A stretch of DNA of 64,000 nucleotides from a virus (Duplodnaviria > Caudoviricetes), in IMG/VR virus record IMGVR_UViG_2974649007_000001, positions 1 to 64,000 of that record; one strand, 5' to 3'. The notes beneath the pieces are model-generated. The model saw only the letters and a list, made by a program, of their open reading frames with translations, made no database searches and was not told where the DNA came from. Within the stretch, counting starts at the first letter, position 1. The number at the start of each line of letters is the position of its first letter. Of this stretch, positions 18,460 to 33,584 are shown in pieces. The position numbers and the translations under genes were made by a program.

Positions 18460-19049
18460 AGACGTTGAATCTCTATGGCAGCATGCAGGAAAAATACCCT
18501 GGCGTGTTCAGGATGGAAGTCGCCACGCCTGCCGAGGCTATCCGCGCGATGTGCATCCAGATCCCTGGCTTCGAGGACGACATCAAGGCTGGCAACTGGC
18601 GCCTGGTGCGCGGCGACCTGGATGCCAACGACGAGATCAACGAGGAAGGCATGCAGTTGACGCTGGGCAACCAGAACGAGCTGCACCTGATCCCGGTGAT
18701 CGAAGGCGCCAACAGCGGCGTGGGCATGATCATCGTCGGCATCGTCATGATCGTGGCTGCCTTCTTCACCGGCGGTGCATCCATCGCAGCCTGGGGTGCC
18801 ATGTCCGTGGCGCTGGCTGCGGCCGGGGTGGGCATGGCGGTTGGCGGCATCATCGCTGCCACCACCAAGATGCCTGGCGTGGCCGAGTCCACCAACGCAA
18901 ACCGTGAGTCCGACCAGGCATCGTTCCTGTTCGACGGCCCAACCAACCAATCGAAACAGGGTGGTGCAGTACCGCGGGGCTACGGCCGTTTGCTGGTCGG
19001 TAGTATCGTGGTCAGCGCCGGCCTCTACGCGGAGCCTATGGCAGTATGA
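18456..19049 (+). CDS. Tail assembly protein (lambda gpI-like)
   Basis: VATPAEAIRAM, LHLIPVIEG, hydrophobic middle, SFLFDGP, VPRGYGRLLVGSIVVS. Confidence 0.85.
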   Translation: MKTLNLYGSMQEKYPGVFRMEVATPAEAIRAMCIQIPGFEDDIKAGNWRLVRGDLDANDEINEEGMQLTLGNQNELHLIPVIEGANSGVGMIIVGIVMIVAAFFTGGASIAAWGAMSVALAAAGVGMAVGGIIAATTKMPGVAESTNANRESDQASFLFDGPTNQSKQGGAVPRGYGRLLVGSIVVSAGLYAEPMAV

Positions 19050-22000
19050 CTACCGCGATCAGGGAAGCTCGCAACCGCAAGCGAAAGCCAGTGACCATCG
19101 ACGGTCAGTGGACTATCGCCCATCCAACCAAAACCGCACTGGCTGTGCAGGGGGCGTTGATTGAGGGCTCGAAGGGTGCCTCGAAACCTCCAGCGCAGTA
19201 CGTGCCGGTGGAAGCGCCGCAGTCTCTGCGCAGTAAGGCGCGCGGCCGCATCCTTGACCTGATCGCCCACGGCCCTATCGTGGGGCTGGTCAACGGACTG
19301 CAGTCGATCCTGCTGGACGAGACGCCGCTGCAAAACCCCGACGGCACGTTCAACTTCGAGGGTGTGGTCGTCCAGACCCGTGAAGGCTACCCAGACCAGG
19401 CATACATCCCTGGTTTCACAGCCGTGGAGAACAGCGTCGAGGTCAACGCCGAGATCAAGTTCGCCACGCCGATCGTGCGCTCTGTCACAAACAACGACGC
19501 CAACGCGGTCATTGTGACAGTCGCCATCCAGGGCCTGACCGAGCAGAAGTCCAACGGTGACCTGCTGGGTTACAAGCTGCCCTACGCTGTGGACGTGCGC
19601 CAGGGCCTGGGTGCCTGGACAACCTCGTTGGTTGACACCATCGACGGTAAGACCACCACCACCTACCAGCGCTCGAGCCGCATCCCGCTGAATGGACCAG
19701 GCCCGTTCGACATCCGCGTGCGCCGAACCACTGAAGAGGCCGGCGCCAACGCCAAGATCAGTGACGACCTGTACTGGTCGATCATGACCGAGGTCATCGA
19801 CGCCCGCCTGAACTACCCCGACAGCGCCCTGGTTGCCATCGACATCGACGCCGAGCTGTTTGGCTCAAAGATGCCGGCCCGCTATTACGACATGGAACTC
19901 AGCATCATCAAGGTGCCGAGCAACTACAACCCGCGCACCCGTGAGTACACCGGGTTCTGGGACGGCACGTTCAAGCTGGCGTGGTCGGACAACCCGGCCT
20001 GGTGCTATTACGACCTGGCCACGCACCCGGTCATCGGCGCCAACAACCAGGCTGTGGATAAGTGGTCGCTGTACCGGATCGCCCAGTATTGCGACGGCAT
20101 GGTGCCGGACGGCTACGGCGGGATGGAACGCCGGTTCAGCTGCAACACGCTGTTCGCCAGCCGCGAGGAAGCGATCACCACCCTGAACACCCTGGCCAGT
20201 GTTTGGCGCGGGATGGTTTACTGGGGCGCCGAGTCGGTCATGGCCGTGGGCGACATGCCTGGCGACGTGGTCAAGCTGGTCACGCCGGCCAACATCACCT
20301 CCGACGGCTTCGAGTACGTGGGCACCTCGCTGCGCGAGCGTCACTCCGTCGCCGTGGTGATGTGGAACGACCCGAACGATGGCTACAAGCAAGTGCCGGA
20401 GATGTACGAAGACCCTGAGAGCATTCAGCTCTTCGGCTGGCGCGAGACCCAGGTCACGGCTGCGTGCTGCACCAGCCGTGGCCAGGCACGTCGCCTGGCC
20501 AAGTGGATCTTGTACTCGGAACGGATGGAGACGGAGATCGTTTCCTACACCGCGTCGACCGACCACAGCGACCTGCGCCCAGGTGACTTCATCAAGATTT
20601 CCGACCCAGACCGGGCCGGTGTACGGCTGCACGGCCGCATCAAGCAGACTGGCGTGCGTCAGCTGACCCTGGACAAGGCGCCAGCCAACCTGCCGAACGA
20701 GACCTGGTATCTCAGCTGCGTCATGCCGTCCGGCACGATCCAGCAGCGCGAGGTGCTGAACTTCAATGGCCCTGTGGTGACGCTGAAGACCGACTTCCCA
20801 GAGGAGCCGATCAAGTCAGCCGTGTTTATCCTGTCCAGCGCCGCCGTGGTCACGCCGACCTACCGCGTGATGTCGGTGATCGAGCAGGAAGACGGGGTGA
20901 CCTACCAGATCTCCGCGACCGAGCACAACCCGAACAAGTACGACTTCGTCGAGTTCGACCTGCAGCTGCCGCCTACCCCGGACAGCACCATCCCGTCCGG
21001 CCCGCTGGCTGGCCCAGAGACGATCAGCGTCACGACCTACAAGTACATCACCGGCGGTGCCGAGCACCAGGCGCTGAACATCAGCTGGTCGAGCGTCGAC
21101 GACGTCCGGGTCACCGGCTACATCCTCGAGGTGCGAGATCCCGACGACGTCGGCTATCGAACCTTGTTCCACGGCAACTCGCTAACGGTGGACGAGAAGG
21201 ATGTCATCGACGGTGAGTGGCTGTTCAGGGTCAAGGCCACGACGGCTACTGGCCGGACGTCCGAGTGGGTGAACCTGACCGCCAACGTGGCAGGACTGCT
21301 GTTCCCAGCGCCTCCGGACACCGTGACCGTGGAAACCACCACGTTCGAGGCCACGGTCACGCCGCGCAACATTTACCCGAACCAGATGTATGAGTTCTGG
21401 CGCAGCGACGTGGCTCTGGCGGCGGGCATGATCGAGTCCAACGCCAAGCGTCTGGCCGTCGGCACCAACCTGGTGGACGTGGGGCTCAAGCCCGACACGA
21501 CCTACTATTACTACGTGCGCGGCACCAACATCTATGGCTTCTCGCAGTTCGTTGGCGCGCAGGGCAAGACCAAGAACGACTTCGACGACATCCTCAACGC
21601 CCTGGACACCGACATCCGCAAGCCGGGTGGCCTGTTCGACGAGATGGTCAACTCGGTCACGCCTGGCATCGAGAACGCGCAGCAGATTGCAGCTGCCGCT
21701 CTGGCCGAGGCGCAGGCTGCGTTGGCTGCGGCGGGTGGCTGGATTCCGCGCATGGAAGTGGTCGAGGACGGCATCACTGACCTGTCCCTGGTCGATGAAC
21801 TGCAGGCTGTGACGCTCCAGGCGCTGCGTACAACTGTCGAAGGCTTCCAGGCCTTGGTCAGCACCGAGGAAGCGACCCGGATCACCGAGGACGCGGCCCT
21901 GGCCAGCCGTATCACCACCGTCAAGGCCGAGACCGACGACCAGCTGGCCGTCGTGACCGACAAGACCTTGGTATTGGCGTCGGCTGACCAGACCCTGGCG

Positions 22001-22699
22001 CAGCAGATCACCACCCTGGACACCAAGTACGTCACCGACATCGGTGAGAACAAGTCGGCAATCGACGACGAGAAGCTGCTGCGCACCACAGCCGACGCTG
22101 CCCTGGCTAGCCGGTTGTCCCTGGTGGAAAGTGCCGTCGGCACCGACCTGGTGGCGCGCATCACGCAGGAAGAGACCACTCGAGCATCGCAAACTGAGTC
22201 GCTGGCGCAGCAGATCACCCAGCTGTCGGCCACCAACGGTGCCCAGTTCGCCAGCATCGCGCAGACCTACTCGACTGTGGCCTACGCCGACACCGCGGTG
22301 GCCCGCGCGATCACCACCGTGACCGTAAACGGCAAGAAGGCCGTGTTCGGTATCTCGGTAGATGGCGAGGTTGCTGAAATTGGTGCGATCGCAGACCGGT
22401 TCTACGTCTACAACCCAGTCGGTGGCAGCTACACGCTGGCATTCGCCGTGGCCAACGGGCAAACTGTGATCCAGGACGGTATGATCCGGGACGCATCCAT
22501 CGGGATGGCCAAGATCACGGGGGCGCTGCAGTCGGACAACTTCATCCCAGGCATTTTGGGCTGGAGACTGTCTAAAACGGGCCTCTTCGAGAACAACGGT
22601 GACACTGAAGGCTCGGGCCGCATGACCCAGACCAACCAGGCGATCACGGTGTTCGACACAGCCGGCAATCGGAAGGTGCAGCTCGGGAAGCTCTCGTAA
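19046..22699 (+). CDS. Central tail fibre/host specificity protein (lambda gpJ-like)
   Basis: DLIAHGPIVGLVNG, YPDSALV, WSDNPAWCYYDL, ERRFSCN, FnIII-like region, coiled coil, DUF1983-like C-terminus. Confidence 0.9.
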   Translation: MTTAIREARNRKRKPVTIDGQWTIAHPTKTALAVQGALIEGSKGASKPPAQYVPVEAPQSLRSKARGRILDLIAHGPIVGLVNGLQSILLDETPLQNPDGTFNFEGVVVQTREGYPDQAYIPGFTAVENSVEVNAEIKFATPIVRSVTNNDANAVIVTVAIQGLTEQKSNGDLLGYKLPYAVDVRQGLGAWTTSLVDTIDGKTTTTYQRSSRIPLNGPGPFDIRVRRTTEEAGANAKISDDLYWSIMTEVIDARLNYPDSALVAIDIDAELFGSKMPARYYDMELSIIKVPSNYNPRTREYTGFWDGTFKLAWSDNPAWCYYDLATHPVIGANNQAVDKWSLYRIAQYCDGMVPDGYGGMERRFSCNTLFASREEAITTLNTLASVWRGMVYWGAESVMAVGDMPGDVVKLVTPANITSDGFEYVGTSLRERHSVAVVMWNDPNDGYKQVPEMYEDPESIQLFGWRETQVTAACCTSRGQARRLAKWILYSERMETEIVSYTASTDHSDLRPGDFIKISDPDRAGVRLHGRIKQTGVRQLTLDKAPANLPNETWYLSCVMPSGTIQQREVLNFNGPVVTLKTDFPEEPIKSAVFILSSAAVVTPTYRVMSVIEQEDGVTYQISATEHNPNKYDFVEFDLQLPPTPDSTIPSGPLAGPETISVTTYKYITGGAEHQALNISWSSVDDVRVTGYILEVRDPDDVGYRTLFHGNSLTVDEKDVIDGEWLFRVKATTATGRTSEWVNLTANVAGLLFPAPPDTVTVETTTFEATVTPRNIYPNQMYEFWRSDVALAAGMIESNAKRLAVGTNLVDVGLKPDTTYYYYVRGTNIYGFSQFVGAQGKTKNDFDDILNALDTDIRKPGGLFDEMVNSVTPGIENAQQIAAAALAEAQAALAAAGGWIPRMEVVEDGITDLSLVDELQAVTLQALRTTVEGFQALVSTEEATRITEDAALASRITTVKAETDDQLAVVTDKTLVLASADQTLAQQITTLDTKYVTDIGENKSAIDDEKLLRTTADAALASRLSLVESAVGTDLVARITQEETTRASQTESLAQQITQLSATNGAQFASIAQTYSTVAYADTAVARAITTVTVNGKKAVFGISVDGEVAEIGAIADRFYVYNPVGGSYTLAFAVANGQTVIQDGMIRDASIGMAKITGALQSDNFIPGILGWRLSKTGLFENNGDTEGSGRMTQTNQAITVFDTAGNRKVQLGKLS

Positions 22700-23049
22700 T
22701 GTCGGTGTATGGACTGCTCGTAAACAACTCGATCGGGGATGTGTTGATTGACCCCGATCAGTTCACCATGAAACAGGTAGCCGCCGCCGTGTATTACGGC
22801 GGCGGCTACAATGGACCTGTATCAGTGAGCATGCCTGGCGTCCTGCCAGGCATGATCGTTATCATCGTGCCGCTATACGCCAGCACGGCAGGTGGCAACA
22901 TCCAAAACAACACCTATGAGTACCGCAACGTCTTCGCCGCGGTCCCCTACGGTGTAGCGGGCAACGGTGTGGTCACGTTGTACAAGGCGTCCGGTGCCAA
23001 CCTGCGAACCATTTTGAACGTGGGCATTTACGTGCTCACCCAGAACTGA
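22699..23049 (+). CDS. Tail tip accessory protein (putative)
   Basis: MSVYGLLVNNSIGDVLID start typical of small genes following gpJ. Coupled to the gpJ stop. Confidence 0.5.
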   Translation: MSVYGLLVNNSIGDVLIDPDQFTMKQVAAAVYYGGGYNGPVSVSMPGVLPGMIVIIVPLYASTAGGNIQNNTYEYRNVFAAVPYGVAGNGVVTLYKASGANLRTILNVGIYVLTQN

Positions 23050-23058
23050 GATCTGACT

Positions 23059-23928
23059 ATGTCTCATGGATTTGAAGCGATCGGCAACAACAGCAGGCTG
23101 CTGATCAACGACGCAACACCCGTCCTCACCCAGATGTTCTGGGGCAGCATCATTGTGAACGTGCTGGTGCCGGCCAACATCGAGTTCGACGACTTCGGCT
23201 CGGACTTCCCGGTGTCCTACGGCTATTGCAGCGTCACCTACTCCACCCCGTACCTGTCCCAAGTCCCGCCCCTGGTCTTCGCGCTGCCCACCAAGTGGAT
23301 GACGCCGGCCGGCCTCGGGCTGTTCGCCCACACAGGAGGGCCTGGAGCCTGGACAGGCTTCACGGTGCTGGTCACGCGCGACGTGCTGTGCCAGGAGTGG
23401 TGGTACATGGAAGCAGGCTGGGACACCGGCTGGGAGTACCGCGTCTGCGGCTTCGCCCAGGCTGGCGATGCGGGCATGGATGAATACGGCATGCGGATCT
23501 GGGGCCCGCCCCCGGAGCTGAAGGTTATCTACGATACAGCCTGGCCGGTGGTGCGATTCAAGGGGCTGCTCGGCGGCTGGGAGCTACATGGCTTCACCCG
23601 ATTCTACGAGGTCTACACCTACTGGGGTGACCGAGAGACGGACAACGTCGACATCGACTACACCATCGCCACAGGCTCACACGCCTGGGGGTACGCTGAC
23701 TGGACGACAGGTTTCCTGCTGTCAGCCATCGGCACCATCGGCACGTCGGTCGACATCGGTGACGACGACGTCGACTTCACAGCCGTTGTGCTGGTAGGGT
23801 TCCCCAACCCGGCACTCCGAGACCGGCTGTACGCCTGCGCCGTCATCGGTAAATCCCAGCACCCTAACGGCGATGTGTCAGCACTGAACTACTGGAAGAT
23901 GCTGCTCGCCGACTTCACTGGTACATAA
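23059..23928 (+). CDS. Tail tip accessory protein (putative)
   Basis: Two related halves beginning SHGFEAIGNNSRLLIND and EYGMRIWG...VIYDT. Aromatic-rich. Confidence 0.5.
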   Translation: MSHGFEAIGNNSRLLINDATPVLTQMFWGSIIVNVLVPANIEFDDFGSDFPVSYGYCSVTYSTPYLSQVPPLVFALPTKWMTPAGLGLFAHTGGPGAWTGFTVLVTRDVLCQEWWYMEAGWDTGWEYRVCGFAQAGDAGMDEYGMRIWGPPPELKVIYDTAWPVVRFKGLLGGWELHGFTRFYEVYTYWGDRETDNVDIDYTIATGSHAWGYADWTTGFLLSAIGTIGTSVDIGDDDVDFTAVVLVGFPNPALRDRLYACAVIGKSQHPNGDVSALNYWKMLLADFTGT

Positions 23929-23941
23929 TTAAGGACTGCCC

Positions 23942-24760
23942 ATGGCTACCCAGATGGAAGAGTTTGAAGCCAGCACACAGCTGCTGGTGCAGAAGGTCGA
24001 ACAGCTGATCACCAAGATCTCGGCGATGGTCGGCACCGAGGACGAGCAGGCGGCTGCGCACGCTGCTGATGCCCTGGCAGCCAAGAACGCAGCGCAGGCT
24101 GCCGCTACCGCCGCCAACGACACCCTGGTAGCCATCCAGGCGCTAGACGCCAACCAGATCGTGATCGACGTCGCCCAGGTCCTCGCCTACAAGAACGCGG
24201 CTGACGCCTCAGCAGCGGCGGCAGCGCAGGATCTGGCTGCCATCACCCAGCTGAAGGCCGACATCGTCCTGATCCAGACTGAAGTCCTCGAGGCACGCAC
24301 CTTCTGCAACAGCGTCAAGGCTCTGGCCCAGTCGGCGCAGGCTGCGCTGGAAGCCACCACCCTGGCACAGGCAGCCATAAACCAGGGCTTGCAGCAGATC
24401 ATCACCGCGCGCGACAACGCGGTCAGCGCTGCCAACTCGGCTGTCGAGAAGGCCACAGCTGCTGCCGCCAGTGCCCAGAAGGCCGAGGACGCCGTGTTGG
24501 AGAACATCCGGGACATGGTCGACCACTCGGTGCTGTCGTTCCCGATCAGCCAGACTGTGATCCGTGTCGACCTGCCACAAAACCGTTACTCCATTGCAGA
24601 GCCTGTGATAATTTGCGTCGTGAATGGCGCGGCTACCAACGTGTCGTTCGTCTGCTCTCACGAGCTGGTGGCGGGCGTTGGCGAGGTCTACACCTACGTC
24701 ACCTTCACCTTCCCGCCAGCACTGGTGGGCAAGAAGTGCAACGCATGGATCTCAGGATAA
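23942..24760 (+). CDS. Ala-rich coiled-coil fibre/adaptor protein
   Basis: Long Ala/Gln heptad stalk with a short beta-rich C-terminal domain. SD aagga. Confidence 0.5.
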   Translation: MATQMEEFEASTQLLVQKVEQLITKISAMVGTEDEQAAAHAADALAAKNAAQAAATAANDTLVAIQALDANQIVIDVAQVLAYKNAADASAAAAAQDLAAITQLKADIVLIQTEVLEARTFCNSVKALAQSAQAALEATTLAQAAINQGLQQIITARDNAVSAANSAVEKATAAAASAQKAEDAVLENIRDMVDHSVLSFPISQTVIRVDLPQNRYSIAEPVIICVVNGAATNVSFVCSHELVAGVGEVYTYVTFTFPPALVGKKCNAWISG

Positions 24761-24769
24761 GGACTGTCA

Positions 24770-27700
24770 GTGGCCAACCCAAAGAAACTCGCCAACATCG
24801 TTCTGTGCCTCCACGGCATCACAACTGTGCGTGCCGAAGTCAGCAACTTCGTGGCCCACGTCGACGATGTAAAGGCCCAGATCGCTTACATCCAAGCGAA
24901 GGGGTACACCTTTGTCAAACCCAGCCAATACGAATCCTGGCAAAACGGAACCGCGGCCGACATCGGCCCCATTTGCTGCGTCATATACGATGACGGGCTA
25001 CTGTCCAATGAGCTTATCGTACCCTGGCATATCGCGCAGGGCATCCCGTGTGGCCTCGCCATTATCACCGCGCGACTTCGGCAATTTACACCAGAAGAAG
25101 GATTTTTCAGCTGGGCTACTCTTGGAGGATGGGTCAATAGTGGTCTTGTAGAGGTGATGACGCACACCGACAACATCCACTACACCTGCCTGGGTTTGGA
25201 CGAAGACAGCGGCCTGATTGACTCGGTCCCTATCCTCGAGAACCCTTGCTACGTGGACAACGGTGACTACGTCTTCCTGCGCCCTGGCGACACCAGGTAC
25301 TACTGGGATCAGACCCTGCTGGAGAACGCGCTGTCCGTGCCGATCGTGGGCTGCGATGCCTATGACGGCAAGCTGCTGACCACGACCATCAAGATCACGC
25401 CGAAGTACACCGGGCCGGTGGCTATCCTGCGCTTCTTCACCACGCTGTCTGTGCCTATGAGCGAAGGTTACGACGCCTCTGTGGAGATCCGCGCCAACGG
25501 CGTGCTGGTCTTCAGCGGCATCGTTGCCCAGAAGGACTACGGCACACGCATCCAGTGGGAAGAGCGTGAGTTCAAGACCATCGTGCTGACCACCCCGTTC
25601 AACGTCACAGCTGGCACCGTGGTGAACCTCGAGTTCAAGACGCTGACCACAGGACCGGCGATGATGAACATCGCCGCGATCCCGACCAGCGAGGACGCGC
25701 TGTTCAGCATCACCACCAACTCGCAAGGGTTCGTGGCAGCGGGTACAGGCGAGGCGCCTGGTCGCTGGTGGAACTACACCGACTATCCAGCAGGCACGCC
25801 ATGGGCTGTGCTGCCAATGATCATCCTGTCCAACGGTACAGGGTCCACGGTCAGCCAGGCTGCCTACGAGGAGTACATCGAGAAGGACATCCGCGCCTCC
25901 CAGTGGAAGCTCAGGGATCTGCTGCACGCTAACTGGCAACTGGTCAATGTTTGGACAGGCAGCTTCACCGCAGAAGGCTCTGGCGGCTTCCAGCAGGTAG
26001 GCTGGATGAACCCCAACAAAGTCAGTGCCATGGTCAAGGCCACCTCGCCAGTAACGGGCGTGGCCAAGTACCTGAACATCGACATCGGCCCAGTCATCCC
26101 GGTGGATTACCCGCCTGAGCAGTGGGACGCTGTGTGGGAAGACGTGCAGCTGCGCAGCTACAACGCCACGTTCGACATCTACATCGCGTCCAATGGGTCA
26201 GGCCCATGGAAGAAGATCGGCACGGTGTCGCTGTGGCAGATCTACCGCGACATGGACATCGAGATCACGCCGATTGAGTGGAAGGCCAAGGTCACCAGGT
26301 ACTTCATGTTTGTGCCGGTGAACGCTGGCCCCGTCGGCGTGCCTGAGCAGAACACGGTCTACACCATCGCAGCCCTCAGCATCGGCATCCATCTGCCTGG
26401 CCCACTGGCACCCAAGCCTACGCAGATTGCCTACCCGTTCGGTGCGTATCAGCCAAACTGGATCGACCCACAGCCGTACATCCGTGAGTCCAAGGACATC
26501 AGCCTCGCGCTGCGCAACATCTTCGCGCGCAACGGAATCACGTTCGGCTACACGATCCAGGCTTACCGCAATTTCCCTCGCAGCCAGTTCCAAGGCTACG
26601 AGCTGCGCCAGACCGAGTACGTGATGGGTCGCCTGATGCTGCTGGGTGACACATCGCAGGAGGTCAACTACAACCTGATCGACGCCTACACCGGCGACAT
26701 GTTTCCGAACACGCCACACAAGGGGCTGAAGTTCCAGGTGTCGCTCGAGGGTGATCTGGTTGGCCACGGCACCGTGCGCCAGCGTGTAGGTGTGATCGAC
26801 TACTTCGCCTTCGACGCCTGGGCATTCAACGGCCAGGGTGCAGCCGGCACCGCTGACATCGTAAAGGATGTGGCCCCGGTGAACGACGGCAGCACGTTTG
26901 AAGGCGAGGTCTACGACAACGAGCGCCGGTTCCTGCAGGAGCGGGGTGCCTACGCGCTTATCATCATCAACAACAACCTGGGCACCGGCGAGCCAAACGA
27001 TGCGATCGCGGCCGACATCTTCGACCACGCTGATGCGTACATCGAGAAGATGATCTACCACGCCAAGCTGGGCAAGTGGGACGGCATCACCTCCAACATC
27101 GAGGGTGCCCCGCCGGAGTACCGGGCAAAGGCTGTGGAGTTCTACAAGAAGCTGGGCCGGCGCTGCCACCAGGAAGGTCTGATTCTGCACATCACCGCGC
27201 CGGCCACCACCAACACCGACTACGACCTGCCATCGTGGACAGGCTGGTGTGACCACGCTGCGATCCTGCCTTACGTGGACGGCATGAAGATCATGTCCTA
27301 CACCGAGACGGCTGAGTGGTCTGATCCGGGTCCTGCAGCGCCTACCGACTTCTGGAACCTGGTGTACAACTACATGTCGGCGATCTTCAAGCCGATGATG
27401 AAGCACAAGATCCTGGTCGGTGGCCGCGCGTTCGGCACCATCTGGTACTCGGCCAACCCTGATGACAGTGGGTACACCACCTACAACGAGATGATCTCGG
27501 AAGCAGCCACCCGTGCGCTGCCCATCAAGATGGGCGACACCGAGATGACCTGGAGCACCAGTGACCCGCTGATCGGCCCAAGCGGAAACAACTTCGCGCC
27601 CTTCACGCGCGTGCTGCCAGACGTCAGTGGCTGGTGCGGCACGCCACTGACCTTGCAGCGCAGCCAGGATACGGCTGAGGCTCGAGGCTTCGGCGGCGTG

Positions 27701-27826
27701 GGCATCTGGAAGATCGACGACGGCGACATCGACGAGTTCTACCCGGCGAACCGCATGTTCGGTAAGTCGCATCGGCTGTACAAGCGGACCTACAACGAGA
27801 TCGTGATTCCGCCAGAGCCGCCATAA
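24770..27826 (+). CDS. CE4 polysaccharide deacetylase + GH18-like glycoside hydrolase fusion (tail-region enzyme)
   Basis: CE4 motifs LCLHG, IYDDG, HTDNIH, AYPFG. GH18 features DGITSNIEG, MKIMSY, GPAAP, KILVG, GFGGVGIWKI. Confidence 0.75.
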   Translation: MANPKKLANIVLCLHGITTVRAEVSNFVAHVDDVKAQIAYIQAKGYTFVKPSQYESWQNGTAADIGPICCVIYDDGLLSNELIVPWHIAQGIPCGLAIITARLRQFTPEEGFFSWATLGGWVNSGLVEVMTHTDNIHYTCLGLDEDSGLIDSVPILENPCYVDNGDYVFLRPGDTRYYWDQTLLENALSVPIVGCDAYDGKLLTTTIKITPKYTGPVAILRFFTTLSVPMSEGYDASVEIRANGVLVFSGIVAQKDYGTRIQWEEREFKTIVLTTPFNVTAGTVVNLEFKTLTTGPAMMNIAAIPTSEDALFSITTNSQGFVAAGTGEAPGRWWNYTDYPAGTPWAVLPMIILSNGTGSTVSQAAYEEYIEKDIRASQWKLRDLLHANWQLVNVWTGSFTAEGSGGFQQVGWMNPNKVSAMVKATSPVTGVAKYLNIDIGPVIPVDYPPEQWDAVWEDVQLRSYNATFDIYIASNGSGPWKKIGTVSLWQIYRDMDIEITPIEWKAKVTRYFMFVPVNAGPVGVPEQNTVYTIAALSIGIHLPGPLAPKPTQIAYPFGAYQPNWIDPQPYIRESKDISLALRNIFARNGITFGYTIQAYRNFPRSQFQGYELRQTEYVMGRLMLLGDTSQEVNYNLIDAYTGDMFPNTPHKGLKFQVSLEGDLVGHGTVRQRVGVIDYFAFDAWAFNGQGAAGTADIVKDVAPVNDGSTFEGEVYDNERRFLQERGAYALIIINNNLGTGEPNDAIAADIFDHADAYIEKMIYHAKLGKWDGITSNIEGAPPEYRAKAVEFYKKLGRRCHQEGLILHITAPATTNTDYDLPSWTGWCDHAAILPYVDGMKIMSYTETAEWSDPGPAAPTDFWNLVYNYMSAIFKPMMKHKILVGGRAFGTIWYSANPDDSGYTTYNEMISEAATRALPIKMGDTEMTWSTSDPLIGPSGNNFAPFTRVLPDVSGWCGTPLTLQRSQDTAEARGFGGVGIWKIDDGDIDEFYPANRMFGKSHRLYKRTYNEIVIPPEPP

Positions 27827-28433
27827 CCACCACTGGTTATCCCAGCCATCGGCGGGGCGCTGCAGGGGCGGGTTCTACTACGGCCAGATCAAGATTGGCA
27901 CCAAGACCTACGCCCTCATTGTGTCGCCGCGCGCCACCGGCAACATCGACGGCCCTGTCATGCAGGTCGACACGGCGTACACGTTCACCGGCAACAACAT
28001 CGACAACGACGGCAAGCAGATCCAGGCCAACATGATCGCCTACGGCATCACCAAGTTCCCAGCGCAGCAGGCTGTGATGGCGCTGACCATTGGTGGCTAC
28101 AGTGACTGGTACATCCCGTCGAAGTACGAGATGGAGATCCTGTACCGGGCGCTGAAGCCGACCACGACGAACAACAACACCGTGGCGGGCGCCAACCCAT
28201 ACGCTGTGCCGACGGCGACGGTCAAGTACACCAACCCGGCTCGCACAGCGCTCACCGACTTCCGCCCAGCCGGTACAAACTTTATGACAGCGGACTTCTA
28301 TTACACTGCCACGCAAGGACCATCTGGGACGGCTTACTGCCACGCCAAACGGTTCACAAACGGGGCAGATGGGGAGGATCTGATGGAGTACGACTACCCA
28401 GTCCGAGCCATTCGTCGCGTGGAGATCAAATAA
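27827..28433 (+). pseudogene. DUF1566/Lcl-like (C-type lectin-fold) domain lacking its own start; disrupted continuation of the upstream gene
   Basis: PPLVIPAIGGALQ lies in the upstream gene's frame after TAA. An extra G in caggggc then shifts into GGFYYGQ.... The whole aligns with the paralogue at 32931. Confidence 0.65.
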
Positions 28434-28527
28434 ACTAAGGCCCAGGAAGAAGTTTGCCATCTACTTTCTTGTGGAGAAGGTGGCAAACAGCTATCCTGCC
28501 GACCACGTTATAAGGAAATAGCAGCTG

Positions 28528-28926
28528 ATGATCAACGAACCAGCTTCGAGTTCAGGGTGGCTAACACTCTTCTTCGTGTACGCCTGGTCGGTGTTGGAGC
28601 AACTCCATCCCGGCTCTGCCATGGGTGCCTCCTTTGGCTGCGTATTCTTCATTCTCCTACCTGACCCAGTCGTTACTTCCTGGGTTCAAAAACTTATTCG
28701 CAAAGTGGGACTCACAGTAGTGTCCTGGGGGTTCGGCTACGCTGTAGGGATTGCATTCTCAAACGGCAGTTCTATGCTGGCAGCGATCATAGGAGCGGCT
28801 GTAGCTTCCGGCGTCCTGGGTGCCATCAACCTGATGGTGAAGAACGACGGCGATCTGCCACAGTGGATGTCCTCACTGATTAACGCAATCCTAAGATTGA
28901 AGCGAGGCGGCGATGATGGGCAATGA
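28528..28926 (+). CDS. Putative holin
   Basis: Several TM segments, NEPASSSG start, basic C-terminus, first gene of the lysis cassette. Confidence 0.7.
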   Translation: MINEPASSSGWLTLFFVYAWSVLEQLHPGSAMGASFGCVFFILLPDPVVTSWVQKLIRKVGLTVVSWGFGYAVGIAFSNGSSMLAAIIGAAVASGVLGAINLMVKNDGDLPQWMSSLINAILRLKRGGDDGQ

Positions 28927-31446: not shown

Positions 31447-32934
31447 ATGAGCCTGATCACGAAGCTGACCAGCCTCGCTCAGGCCATCGCGGCTGACATC
31501 AAGGCGCTGTACACGGGCAAGGCTGACGTTTCAGCGCTGTCCGAGTACCGGACTATCCTGGATACGCGGTTCACCAAGGTGACCACGCAGACAGCCTATG
31601 TGCCGGTGGTGGACAGCCTCGATTACGGCGTGCGCTTCGACTACACACTGTATCCTGACGGCCCTTCGGAGGCTGTGTCGCCGGCTATCCTGACCACGTT
31701 CACAGCCAACGTGAGCAACGGCGCGCTGGTAGGCCAGGCACACGGCATCGGCCACCTGGACATGTACAACATCATCGGCGGTGGCGTCGTCAACTTGATC
31801 TTCGGCAAGGAGACGCGGATCGCGCTGCAGGGCGGAGCGCACCTCGAGGAGTTCCTGCTGCACAAGTGGGTGCTGGAGCCGAACGCCACCAACAACGGCA
31901 CCATTGGCACCATCACGCTGGACGGCCTGGACGACATGAGTTCCAGTGCGCCCTACGTCGCCAAGTTCCGCAAGCTCTACGCGGACCCGCGCTTTATCGA
32001 ATACAACGCGGGTGGCCACGTCATCTCCCCGGGCATCATCGACGGTAACGTCACGCTCGAGGATCGTCACAGCGGCAAGGTCGTCTACCTGAACAGCTTC
32101 AGTGACGTCACCGTGACTATCGGCACCGTGACCGACGGCTTCAGGGTGAAGATCGTGCAGGGCACCCTCGGCGGGCGGATCACCATCGCACCAGGAGCTC
32201 GCACCGCGCTGGCCGGAATCACGCGCATGCAGACGCAGGCAGCGTTCGACAACGTCGAGGTGTTGGCTGCGGGCGGGAGCTTCCTGATGATGGAGTGGCC
32301 ACTGTCGGTCAAGCCAATCGTCAGCGTCGACACCACCACAGCGCGCACGCTGACGGCGAACGACGGCTACGTGCAGATGAACAACGCTGCAGCCTCCGTC
32401 GTGACCGTGCCGCCTCAATCGACGGCTGCCTGGCCAGACGACGCCGAGGTCCTTATCGAGCAGGCAGGCGCGGGCGCTGTGACCATCGCGGCAGGCGCGG
32501 GCGTGACAATCAACACGCCGACCACGCTGAAGGTGCCAGGCCGGTACGGCGCTGTGATGCTCAAGCGCACGGCCCTGAACACCTGGACGCTGCGAAACGC
32601 CAAGGCAATGATCTTCGACGACCTGGTGGTTAACGGTGCAACCACAGGCACGCAGTCGCTGAACGTGGGTGCAGCGCAGGTCTTCAACCTGACCTTGTCG
32701 GGTAACACCACGATCAACTTCACGAACGTACCAGTGCCTGTTGGCCAGAGCTATAGCTGGTTGGTGCGGGTCACTCAAGGTGGCACAGCCCGCACGCTTA
32801 CCATTAACGGCGTCACCTGGCTGACGTCGGGCGGCACCTACCCAGGCGCGCCTGCGGCCAACAAAATCATTGAGTACATCTTCAGCACCGAAAACGGCAC
32901 CACGATCCTCGGCAGGAAGGGGGCGTTCACTTGA
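31447..32934 (+). CDS. Tail/head fibre protein
   Basis: Shares the LAQAIA.D.K.L N-terminus with the upstream gene. Two tandem beta-sandwich modules plus a C-terminal fibre-tip module. Confidence 0.6.
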   Translation: MSLITKLTSLAQAIAADIKALYTGKADVSALSEYRTILDTRFTKVTTQTAYVPVVDSLDYGVRFDYTLYPDGPSEAVSPAILTTFTANVSNGALVGQAHGIGHLDMYNIIGGGVVNLIFGKETRIALQGGAHLEEFLLHKWVLEPNATNNGTIGTITLDGLDDMSSSAPYVAKFRKLYADPRFIEYNAGGHVISPGIIDGNVTLEDRHSGKVVYLNSFSDVTVTIGTVTDGFRVKIVQGTLGGRITIAPGARTALAGITRMQTQAAFDNVEVLAAGGSFLMMEWPLSVKPIVSVDTTTARTLTANDGYVQMNNAAASVVTVPPQSTAAWPDDAEVLIEQAGAGAVTIAAGAGVTINTPTTLKVPGRYGAVMLKRTALNTWTLRNAKAMIFDDLVVNGATTGTQSLNVGAAQVFNLTLSGNTTINFTNVPVPVGQSYSWLVRVTQGGTARTLTINGVTWLTSGGTYPGAPAANKIIEYIFSTENGTTILGRKGAFT

Positions 32935-33584
32935 ACCTGGCCATGCTGTGTATGACTATCCCTCCGGTGGTGACCGTAGCTCCACCGGCGATCGGCGCTG
33001 CCTACGAGGGTGGCTTCTACTATGGCCAGATCACCATCGACGGCGTGATCTACAACCTCGTGCTGTCGCCTCGAGCATCCGGTGAGGTGCCGGCCAGTGT
33101 GTACAAGAACGACGCCCTCGGCTTCTCGGGCAACACGTCTCTTAACGACGGTAAACTTATCCAGGAGAACATGGTTGCGGCTGGCATCTCCAACTTCCCG
33201 GCGCAAGAGGCTGTGATGGCGATGACGATTGGAGGGTTCAACGACTGGTACATCCCGTCGAAGCTCGAGCTTGAGATCGTCTACCGTAACCTGAAGCCTA
33301 ACGCCACACGGAACGTGAACTCGTCTGGCGCCAACGCTTACGCTGTGCCTCCTACGTCGAACTATGTGGCAGGTAACCCGTCAAGGACGACGCTGTCGGA
33401 CTTCAGGTCTACCGGCACCAACAACATGACGACTGACTATTACTACTCGGCTACCCAAGGCCCAAGCGGCGCGCTGTGGGTACATTCCAAACGGTTCACC
33501 ACCGGCGCCGACGCACAAGACAAGGCTGAGTTCGACTACCCCGTCAGGGCGATCCGAAGGGTGTCCACGATTATTGCTACATAG
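32931..33584 (+). CDS. DUF1566/Lcl-like (C-type lectin-fold) protein, intact paralogue
   Basis: GGFNDWYIPSKLELE and YPVRAIRR motifs. TTG start overlaps the fibre stop; ATG 32943 is an alternative. Confidence 0.6.
   Translation: MNLAMLCMTIPPVVTVAPPAIGAAYEGGFYYGQITIDGVIYNLVLSPRASGEVPASVYKNDALGFSGNTSLNDGKLIQENMVAAGISNFPAQEAVMAMTIGGFNDWYIPSKLELEIVYRNLKPNATRNVNSSGANAYAVPPTSNYVAGNPSRTTLSDFRSTGTNNMTTDYYYSATQGPSGALWVHSKRFTTGADAQDKAEFDYPVRAIRRVSTIIAT

Follow-up and report, generated by a model that had tools for sequence, protein, structure and literature searches.

We analyzed the first 64,000 nucleotides (positions 1 to 64,000, hereafter the window) of the tailed-virus record IMGVR_UViG_2974649007_000001, a complete virus genome of 87,196 bp with ~61% GC. 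At the end of its tail module, an open reading frame (ORF) of 1018 residues at 24770–27826 combines a carbohydrate esterase family 4 (CE4) N-deacetylase fold, interrupted by two inserted modules, with a GH18-fold barrel. The reading that we prefer, with a probability of about 0.5, is that the product is a two-enzyme tail accessory protein cutting a polymer rich in N-acetylglucosamine (GlcNAc), most likely poly-N-acetylglucosamine (PNAG). More tentatively, the gene and its relatives may constitute a natural family of phage PNAG depolymerases that ‘deacetylate, then cleave’, joining an IcaB-type CE4 enzyme to a GH18 barrel with GH85-like NxE chemistry, possibly directed at β-1,6 bonds, carried in six copies on the distal tail ring of many phages and always accompanied by a small partner protein.

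Two enzyme folds in one phage protein

The gene and the parts of its product are located as follows.

24770–27826, plus strand: CE4–GH18 gene, whole ORF, from GTG at 24770 to TAA at 27824–27826; 1018 residues, CE4 with two inserts and then a predicted GH18-fold hydrolase
24782–25249, plus strand: CE4 barrel, first part (residues ~5–160), with H15 (permuted LxH motif), D74, D75 and H132-x4-H137; delimited by HMMER alignment to IcaB 4wcj and by structural comparison (VIA)
25250–25849, plus strand: insert 1, a β-sandwich or jelly roll (residues ~161–360), from the secondary structure of the AlphaFold (AF2) model
25856–26401, plus strand: long helix (363–384) and insert 2, a β-sandwich resembling a carbohydrate-binding module (CBM; residues ~385–544), from the AF2 model
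26402–26704, plus strand: CE4 barrel, second part (residues ~545–645), with YPFG at 555–558 and conserved R600, R613 and R621; CE4 structural alignments reach residues 640–645
26717–27769, plus strand: GH18-fold (β/α)8 barrel (residues ~650–1000), with D771-G-I-T774-S-N776-I-E778, Y844 and W980; from Pfam PF00704 and the fold match to 5jh8

A sequence-only reading of the window had proposed, from short motifs, that a CE4 deacetylase is fused here to a GH18-type hydrolase. The ORF is real and each motif is in place: LCLHG at residues 12–16, YDDG at 73–76 (24986–24997), HTDNIH at 132–137 (25163–25180) and AYPFG at 554–558 (from 26429) in the deacetylase part, and DGITSNIEG at 771–779, IMSY at 841–844 and GFGGVGIW at 973–980 in the GH18 part. 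Sequence, fold and the invariance of the catalytic residues all bear out both domains. AF2 models were built for the whole protein (30 relatives; predicted local distance difference test (pLDDT) score 84.5, predicted template modelling (pTM) score 0.82) and for residues 1–700 (58 sequences; pLDDT 91.9, pTM 0.88), and were compared with known structures exhaustively (VIA) and with Foldseek; conservation was counted in 50 relatives. Set against PgaB, IcaB and GH18 structures, the models contain a CE4 barrel with the D-H-H residues and a TIM barrel.

The deacetylase part of the 1–700 model is closest to IcaB 4wcj (Z 25.8, root-mean-square deviation (rmsd) 2.1 Å, 225 of 233 residues aligned, 24% identity), followed by PgaB 4f9d (Z 25.4), PplD (6dq3; Z 24.3) and a Bacillus anthracis peptidoglycan deacetylase (Z 23.1), whereas canonical CE4 enzymes reached Z ~10 at most. 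In the whole-protein model, the PgaB N-domain 3vus aligned with Z 26.8 (rmsd 2.1 Å, 242 of 256 residues). Sequence searches of the PDB agree: IcaB 4wcj aligns to residues 10–138 (E 1.2e-4), with BpsB and PgaB weaker, and in the HMMER alignment LCLHG, YDDG and HTDNIH pair with LCYH, FDDG and HTYDLH of IcaB. H15, D74, D75, H132 and H137 are invariant (50/50 relatives); within YPFG, P556 and G558 are equally invariant and F557 is kept in 47/50. In PplD, the termini are swapped relative to canonical CE4 enzymes, a D-H-H triad binds zinc, an adjacent Asp holds the catalytic water and an N-terminal His is the acid/base; motif 4 is absent, and these class features are said to be common to PgaB and IcaB (PMC8807736). 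By modelled fold and by residues, the N-terminal enzyme belongs to this circularly permuted PgaB/IcaB/PplD class. H15 would then be the acid/base, D74 would position the catalytic water, and D75, H132 and H137 would bind the metal.

The general deacetylase profile (Pfam PF01522, Polysacc_deac_1) gave no match for the window protein at E ≤ 1, and among 30 relatives it was matched by ten at E ≤ 0.01 (best 1.7e-5); the member encoded at locus L002, described below, scored 17.6 bits against a cut-off of 23.1. These scores are low because two inserts split the domain: the barrel takes only ~240 of the first 645 residues, and both inserts sit between H-x4-H and YPFG. Insert 1 weakly resembles the phage baseplate or tail-tip proteins 9euf and 9d93 (Z ~9, VIA), and insert 2 a chondroitin-sulfate-binding CBM (8wab, Z 8.3) and PNGase F (Z 7.9). 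Foldseek returned tandem CBM51, CBM32 and CBM22 modules in alignments that span much of the model at rmsd ~20 Å. Such weak matches to a model give the fold class only; within that limit, the two β-sandwich modules are probably glycan-binding. A turret protein of Haloferax tailed virus 1 (PDB 8qpg chain TC) also aligned to model residues 63–643 (Z 12.5, 162 residues aligned) and is a distant precedent, in an archaeal virus, for a virion-borne CE4 fold.

For the C-terminal part, Pfam PF00704 (GH18) scored 31.1 bits against a gathering cut-off of 29.6 (E 2.5e-7, residues 788–983); 23 of 30 relatives match it, and a homologue from Sinobaca qinghaiensis reaches 65.2 bits. The best fold matches are the GH18 ‘chitinase’ 5jh8 (Z 32.4, rmsd 3.0 Å, 305 of 317 residues aligned over model residues 652–992), 4q6t (Z 31.1) and SleL (Z 29.8, model residues 652–999). 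SleL is the best Foldseek match (6.9e-19), with YdhD also among the top ones, and a phmmer search of the PDB matched 5jh8 (E 1.2e-8) and YdhD by sequence. Residues 765–897 match phrog_3432, annotated as ‘minor tail protein’. E778, Y844 of the MSY motif and W980 are invariant (50/50), but the canonical GH18 DxxDxDxE motif is absent, DGxTxNxE standing in its place (N776 in 46/50 relatives, T774 in 42/50).

This degenerate DxDxE (T774, N776), which recalls some chitinase-like lectins, and the subthreshold PF01522 result raise the idea that catalysis has been lost from one barrel or from both, leaving lectin modules that only bind glycans during adsorption. Chi-lectins typically lose the catalytic Glu, whereas here 50/50 relatives retain that Glu together with the Tyr and every catalytic residue of CE4 (H, D, D, H, H), and we regard two dead barrels, or one, as highly improbable. 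An NxE pair with a Tyr is catalytically competent in GH85: the catalytic set of Endo-A is N171, E173 and Y205, in a motif that reads DGWFINQE in a published mutagenesis primer (PMC2646837). The window protein has the same DGxxxNxE pattern. By this analogy, the GH18 barrel is probably an active retaining enzyme, not a dead lectin, that enlists the N-acetyl group of its own substrate: N776-x-E778 and Y844 would carry out substrate-assisted catalysis on β-linked GlcNAc as in GH85.

Family, tail fusions and candidate substrate

Word-indexed and exhaustive searches recovered a small family, with 29 relatives at 36–90% identity; at the 50% identity level, a set of 1.8 billion representatives contained ~25 full-length clusters. 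Most members come from metagenomic contigs, mostly of phages, and the contigs are assigned to hosts as different as Acinetobacter, Rhodocyclaceae and Adiutrix. In the GenBank phage collection, tblastn found only a 72-residue match to the GH18 part, in Weizmannia phage Youna2, and no described phage relative; a single-protein locus scan returned nothing from viral contigs and one distant locus from metagenomes.

The C-terminal architecture links the family to the tail. Among 30 aligned members, 15 end in DUF2460 and the four closest relatives in an Lcl_C/DUF1566-like domain, while the rest have no extension; the Acinetobacter clade, for example, ends at the equivalent of residue ~1006. At locus L002, lambda-type tail tube and tape measure genes are followed by a 90-residue ORF (the partner discussed below), the CE4–GH18–DUF2460 gene, a baseplate hub (Gp84_N + BR0599), an NlpC/P60 peptidase and a protein with Phage-tail_3 and Rcc01698_C. 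This order matches g11–g15 of the Rhodobacter gene transfer agent (RcGTA), in which g12 is a hexameric distal tail protein of ~209 residues (PMC7296036). DUF2460 (PF09343) is taken to be the distal tail protein, an assignment that is positional and backed by its profile length of 205; on this assignment, fused members would be virion parts. In half of the family, the enzyme would thus be an N-terminal extension of a baseplate ring protein, implying six copies per virion. The unfused window gene lies in the tail module, as the sequence-only reading had it, and stands between gpJ and the lysis genes; the fusions in a GTA-like baseplate operon strengthen the case for a tail or virion role. In this phage too, the protein would sit on the tail tip or baseplate, the site to which half of the family is covalently tied.

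A 43-kb circular Acinetobacter plasmid, pYH12138-3, carries phage genes in which a 216-residue ORF, the enzyme and a holin follow one another. NZ_CP048673.1 (L018) and NZ_CP044020.1, circular non-mobilizable Acinetobacter ‘plasmids’ of ~43 kb, contain terL, large ORFs of structural-protein size, the partner–enzyme pair and a holin; both look like phage-plasmids or circularised phage genomes.

Evidence on the substrate came from cellular genomes. A scan of 185,579 species genomes identified only three carriers, namely a Rhodocyclaceae metagenome-assembled genome (MAG), a Candidatus Adiutrix MAG and Sinobaca qinghaiensis. The two MAG loci look phage-type because both carry the upstream partner ORF. 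The Sinobaca homologue (921 residues) is co-linear over residues 10–1006 (28% identity, E 5e-119) and has the same motifs. Its gene (locus L014) is convergent to a PNAG operon and ~50 bp from the operon end; the operon encodes PgaC/IcaA (TIGR03937, 520 bits against a cut-off of 422), PgaD (39.5 against 31.45) and an IcaB-like deacetylase, while the other neighbours are ordinary metabolic genes. At L014 5782–5967, 19 bp upstream of the homologue, a 61-residue ORF has two predicted membrane helices and could encode a holin-like export partner. PgaC above cut-off was found in two of the three carrier genomes versus one of 14 control genomes, an enrichment that is only suggestive because binning of phage contigs into MAGs is unreliable. 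A second cellular homologue occurs in Thermoanaerobacter sp. YS13 (WP_042833194.1).

The Sinobaca locus is the sole direct pointer to a substrate. Taken with the PgaB/IcaB-class fold, it favours PNAG, which by this analogy is the most likely substrate, at close to an even chance. Of the GlcNAc or GalNAc polymers that the sequence-only reading had listed, PNAG thus gained a pointer (Sinobaca icaA, pgaD and icaB), whereas Pel is disfavoured: the PelA deacetylase aligned with Z 8.7 only, and GH18-type chemistry acts on β-linked GlcNAc. In the proposed mechanism, partial deacetylation and cleavage of a GlcNAc-rich polymer around the host would let the phage pass through the matrix.

Several points weigh against this proposal. 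The usual targets of GH18 enzymes are β-1,4 bonds, such as those of chitin, peptidoglycan and the cores of N-glycans, and PNAG is β-1,6-linked. The nearest solved GH18 structures include the peptidoglycan-active SleL and YdhD, and hydrolase activity is argued by analogy to GH85 because T and N replace both Asp of the GH18 DxDxE. The CE4 class alone leaves the substrate unfixed because it includes PplD, acting on a rhamnopolysaccharide linkage unit, and the B. anthracis peptidoglycan deacetylase. The PNAG link is a single cellular locus; its homologue has no signal peptide, and a search of 400 other Bacilli genomes with the Sinobaca protein gave no match at E ≤ 1e-20. Finally, the enzyme gene lies directly before the holin here and in the Acinetobacter plasmid, which fits a soluble lysis-released factor equally well.

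The same two-enzyme tail protein might instead act on another GlcNAc glycan of the host, such as the O-antigen of lipopolysaccharide, a capsule or a slime polymer. This would suit a CE4 class acting on several substrates, the very different hosts to which the contigs are assigned, and a gene that occupies, between gpJ and the lysis genes, a variable host-specificity slot taken up in phage Lana by a J protein of 2505 residues; one of the three carrier genomes also lacks PgaC above cut-off. One widespread substrate, however, better fits the retention of catalytic and many non-catalytic residues across hosts at ~40% identity, and the sole cellular context found is a PNAG operon. We consider a different glycan unlikely, yet with an appreciable chance of being correct.

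A tail-associated enzyme acting on peptidoglycan is also conceivable, with the GH18 barrel as a SleL-like N-acetylglucosaminidase and the CE4 domain deacetylating peptidoglycan during DNA injection. The spore-cortex enzymes SleL and YdhD are the best Foldseek matches, the B. anthracis deacetylase is among the top CE4 matches, and peptidoglycan is common to Gram-negative and Gram-positive carriers. Against this, the baseplates of fused relatives already encode an NlpC/P60 peptidase, and a module of ~110 kDa with two CBM-like inserts outside the distal tail ring is poorly placed for the periplasm. Moreover, a GlcNAc once deacetylated could no longer serve as a site of substrate-assisted cleavage, which would keep the two activities from cooperating, and in Sinobaca the gene lies beside a PNAG operon rather than in a cell-wall locus. 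A peptidoglycan target therefore seems quite improbable, and a GlcNAc-rich matrix polymer, on which the two sites may cooperate, is preferred.

Locus, partner gene and truncated C-terminus

The remaining features of the locus are the following.

23942–24760, plus strand: partner ORF of 272 residues, with an Ala-rich coiled-coil N-terminal part of ~190 residues and a conserved β domain of ~75 residues (~24530–24757)
24759–24772, plus strand: ribosome-binding site and start of the enzyme gene, AAGGA at 24759–24763, 6 nucleotides ahead of GTG 24770, overlapping the TAA of the partner ORF
27806–27872, plus strand: Pro-rich linker with two lesions, TAA at 27824–27826 and one extra base within 27865–27872 (cagGGGGCGGGttc)
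27873–28433, plus strand: severed Lcl_C/DUF1566-like (lectin-like) domain, in the +1 frame; Pfam Lcl_C E 4.6e-5, below cut-off
32931–33584, plus strand: intact stand-alone Lcl_C-like paralogue of 217 residues; 58–60% identity to the C-termini of relatives P0002 and P0003 (tblastn), Pfam Lcl_C E 4.7e-4

The gene context agrees with the placement after gpJ first described from the sequence. The enzyme gene closes a lambda-like tail module, preceded by gpJ (19046–22699; phrog_31, E ~1e-288) and three small ORFs and followed by two holins, an endolysin and an Rz spanin. The J protein and lysis genes are closest to those of Pseudomonas phages Lana and UAntarctica (54% amino acid identity for J, 75% nucleotide identity for the lysis genes), which, together with the GC content of ~61%, makes a Pseudomonas-type host likely. 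In this phage, a J protein of 1217 residues is followed by ORFs of 116, 289 and 272 residues (19046–24760) and then the enzyme; the counterpart in Lana (NC_048166, 19269–26786) is a single giant J protein of 2505 residues. Judged from this comparison, the distal host-recognition part has been exchanged as a block. Promoter-like or terminator-like sites were not found on the plus strand within 22600–28700. Antisense ORFs at 27837–28460 and 26198–27772 (both minus strand) were dismissed as spurious, having no family matches and lying opposite conserved coding sequence in DNA of 60% GC.

Directly upstream of the enzyme, a homologue of the C-terminal ~75 residues of the partner was present in each of the 11 phage-type loci whose flank on that side was readable, usually as an ORF of 80–90 residues (for example, L002 7710–7982, with equivalents in L003–L013). 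This domain has no significant Pfam or PHROG family. The overlap of AAGGA with the partner TAA points to translational coupling, and the partner may be an adaptor, chaperone or subunit. The enzyme N-terminus, MANPKKL, is the same start as in relatives. We rejected the idea that the in-frame partner ORF is a broken enzyme N-terminus: all relatives begin with MANPKKL and their extra length is C-terminal.

That extra length distinguishes the window protein from its close relatives, which have 1221–1233 residues, the last ~200 forming an Lcl_C-like domain (Pfam E 3e-4 to 7e-4, below cut-off). In this clade, the protein would normally carry this lectin-like domain. The window retains the severed domain at 27846–28430 in the +1 frame, with 86–91% identity to the C-termini of P0002 and P0003 (tblastn). 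The TAA at 27824–27826 replaces a Glu of P0003, after which the same frame reads PPLVIPAIGGALQG, identical to P0003, until the extra base within 27865–27872 shifts the frame. The first ATG, GTG or TTG in the +1 frame is GTG 27921, inside the lectin-like domain. When the two 90%-identity clusters nearest to the window protein are taken together with the following two, 15 of 17 members are fused and two, one of them from this genome, have 1018 residues. The other, P0196, comes from a separate assembly (a Logan contig of 16,003 bp; cluster of P0002), is 92% identical to the window protein and stops in the same Pro-rich linker at a different codon. As P0196 also ends at 1018 residues in that linker, the break is probably real and recurrent, not an assembly error, and the two copies suggest recurrent loss or splitting of the lectin-like domain. 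A programmed bypass or frameshift joining the enzyme to Lcl_C is unlikely, as it would need two events and the skipped stretch still encodes the residues of the relatives in the original frame. The stop codon and frameshift would thus have cut off the lectin-like domain, leaving a remainder that ends like natural Acinetobacter-type members; given this end and two intact barrels, the truncated protein is probably still functional.

The lectin-like domain occurs twice in this phage, as the broken fusion and as the stand-alone subunit. The gene of the latter overlaps the stop of a fibre-like ORF (31447–32934, 495 residues; phrog_20194, virion structural protein families), and this intact copy behind a fibre-like gene indicates that the domain functions on its own as well.

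Position next to the lysis genes allows for a soluble late protein outside the virion, freed at lysis and loosening matrix or debris for dispersal of the progeny. The gene is immediately ahead of the holin in the window and in pYH12138-3, the protein has no signal peptide, neither this copy nor the Acinetobacter clade has a recognisable structural anchor, and the Sinobaca homologue follows the candidate holin-like two-helix ORF. On the other side, in half of the family the enzyme and the distal tail protein form a single product of a baseplate operon, 15 of 17 full-length clade members carry a lectin-like domain that elsewhere in this genome follows a fibre-like gene, and the partner conserved upstream takes the form here of a fibre-like coiled-coil protein. 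We regard a soluble role as improbable and retain the tail accessory protein as the preferred reading.

Comparison with known systems

PgaB and BpsB of Escherichia coli and Bordetella are periplasmic PNAG de-N-acetylases with a C-terminal GH153 hydrolase domain. Like PgaB, the window protein has a permuted CE4 barrel ahead of a (β/α)8 barrel; it also shares the H-x4-H spacing and the N-terminal catalytic His. Full-length PgaB 4f9d spans both domains (Z 27.6, 471 residues, model residues 6–982) with a high rmsd, pointing to a different relative domain orientation. Pfam and fold both place the second barrel in GH18, without a match to the C-terminal family of PgaB (GH153), and the PgaB equivalog TIGR03938 (NCBIfam) scored 25.4 bits against a cut-off of 321.9, over residues 10–141 only. 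Further differences are the absence of a lipoprotein signal, two CE4 inserts of ~180 residues, the phage origin and a family with tail anchor domains. PNAG-operon adjacency is absent from the phage and present for Sinobaca, the one cellular homologue whose context was read. The PgaB-like architecture first proposed is thus supported, with the qualification that the hydrolase is a GH18 barrel with NxE and not the GH153 of PgaB; by sequence, the protein is PgaB-like in layout and not a PgaB equivalog.

IcaB of Ammonifex degensii (4wcj) and PplD of Streptococcus pyogenes (6dq3) are the best structural and sequence matches of the deacetylase part, with aligned catalytic motifs, but are stand-alone extracellular enzymes of ~230 residues without inserts or a hydrolase domain. 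The GH18 group of SleL, YdhD, 5jh8 and 4q6t provides the best barrel matches (Z 29–32, ~305–320 residues aligned), with the catalytic Glu and the MSY Tyr aligned; these enzymes keep D-x-E, whereas in the present family the pair is N-x-E and the residue following the Tyr is T in place of D.

Among phage proteins, the closest parallels are tail-borne depolymerases and ‘evolved’ distal tail proteins, which likewise bear enzymes or CBMs at the tail tip or baseplate in a variable host-recognition region. Known depolymerases are mostly β-helix lyases or hydrolases, or O-acetyl esterases. A BFVD search showed that GH18-fold phage proteins exist, such as the ‘glycosylase’ of Geobacillus phage TP-84 and actinophage minor tail proteins; among the top 50 viral models listed, none was annotated as a deacetylase or as more than GH18. 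A full-text literature search found no paper on a phage tail protein combining CE4 N-deacetylase and GH18 and no description of a natural phage PNAG-degrading enzyme. To our knowledge, few enzymes degrade PNAG, chiefly dispersin B and the PgaB hydrolase domain.

The window protein would accordingly be a kind of tail-borne glycan-processing enzyme, new, as far as the searches made here reach, in combining a CE4 N-deacetylase, two inserted β-sandwiches and GH18 in a phage structural protein. Beyond what the motifs had suggested, the analysis defined the family and its fusions to the distal tail protein, recognised the NxE motif, placed a homologue next to a PNAG operon, and showed that the partner ORF is conserved and this copy truncated. 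As a polymer of the biofilm matrix, PNAG is shared by many bacteria, among them Acinetobacter, E. coli, Bordetella and staphylococci. If the proposed function is correct, virion-borne N-deacetylation and cleavage would represent a new class of phage anti-matrix protein and a source of anti-biofilm enzymes, would mean that ‘evolved’ distal tail proteins process carbohydrates as well as bind them, and would open the NxE catalytic pair to mechanistic study in a GH18 barrel. The architecture stands even if the substrate is another glycan.

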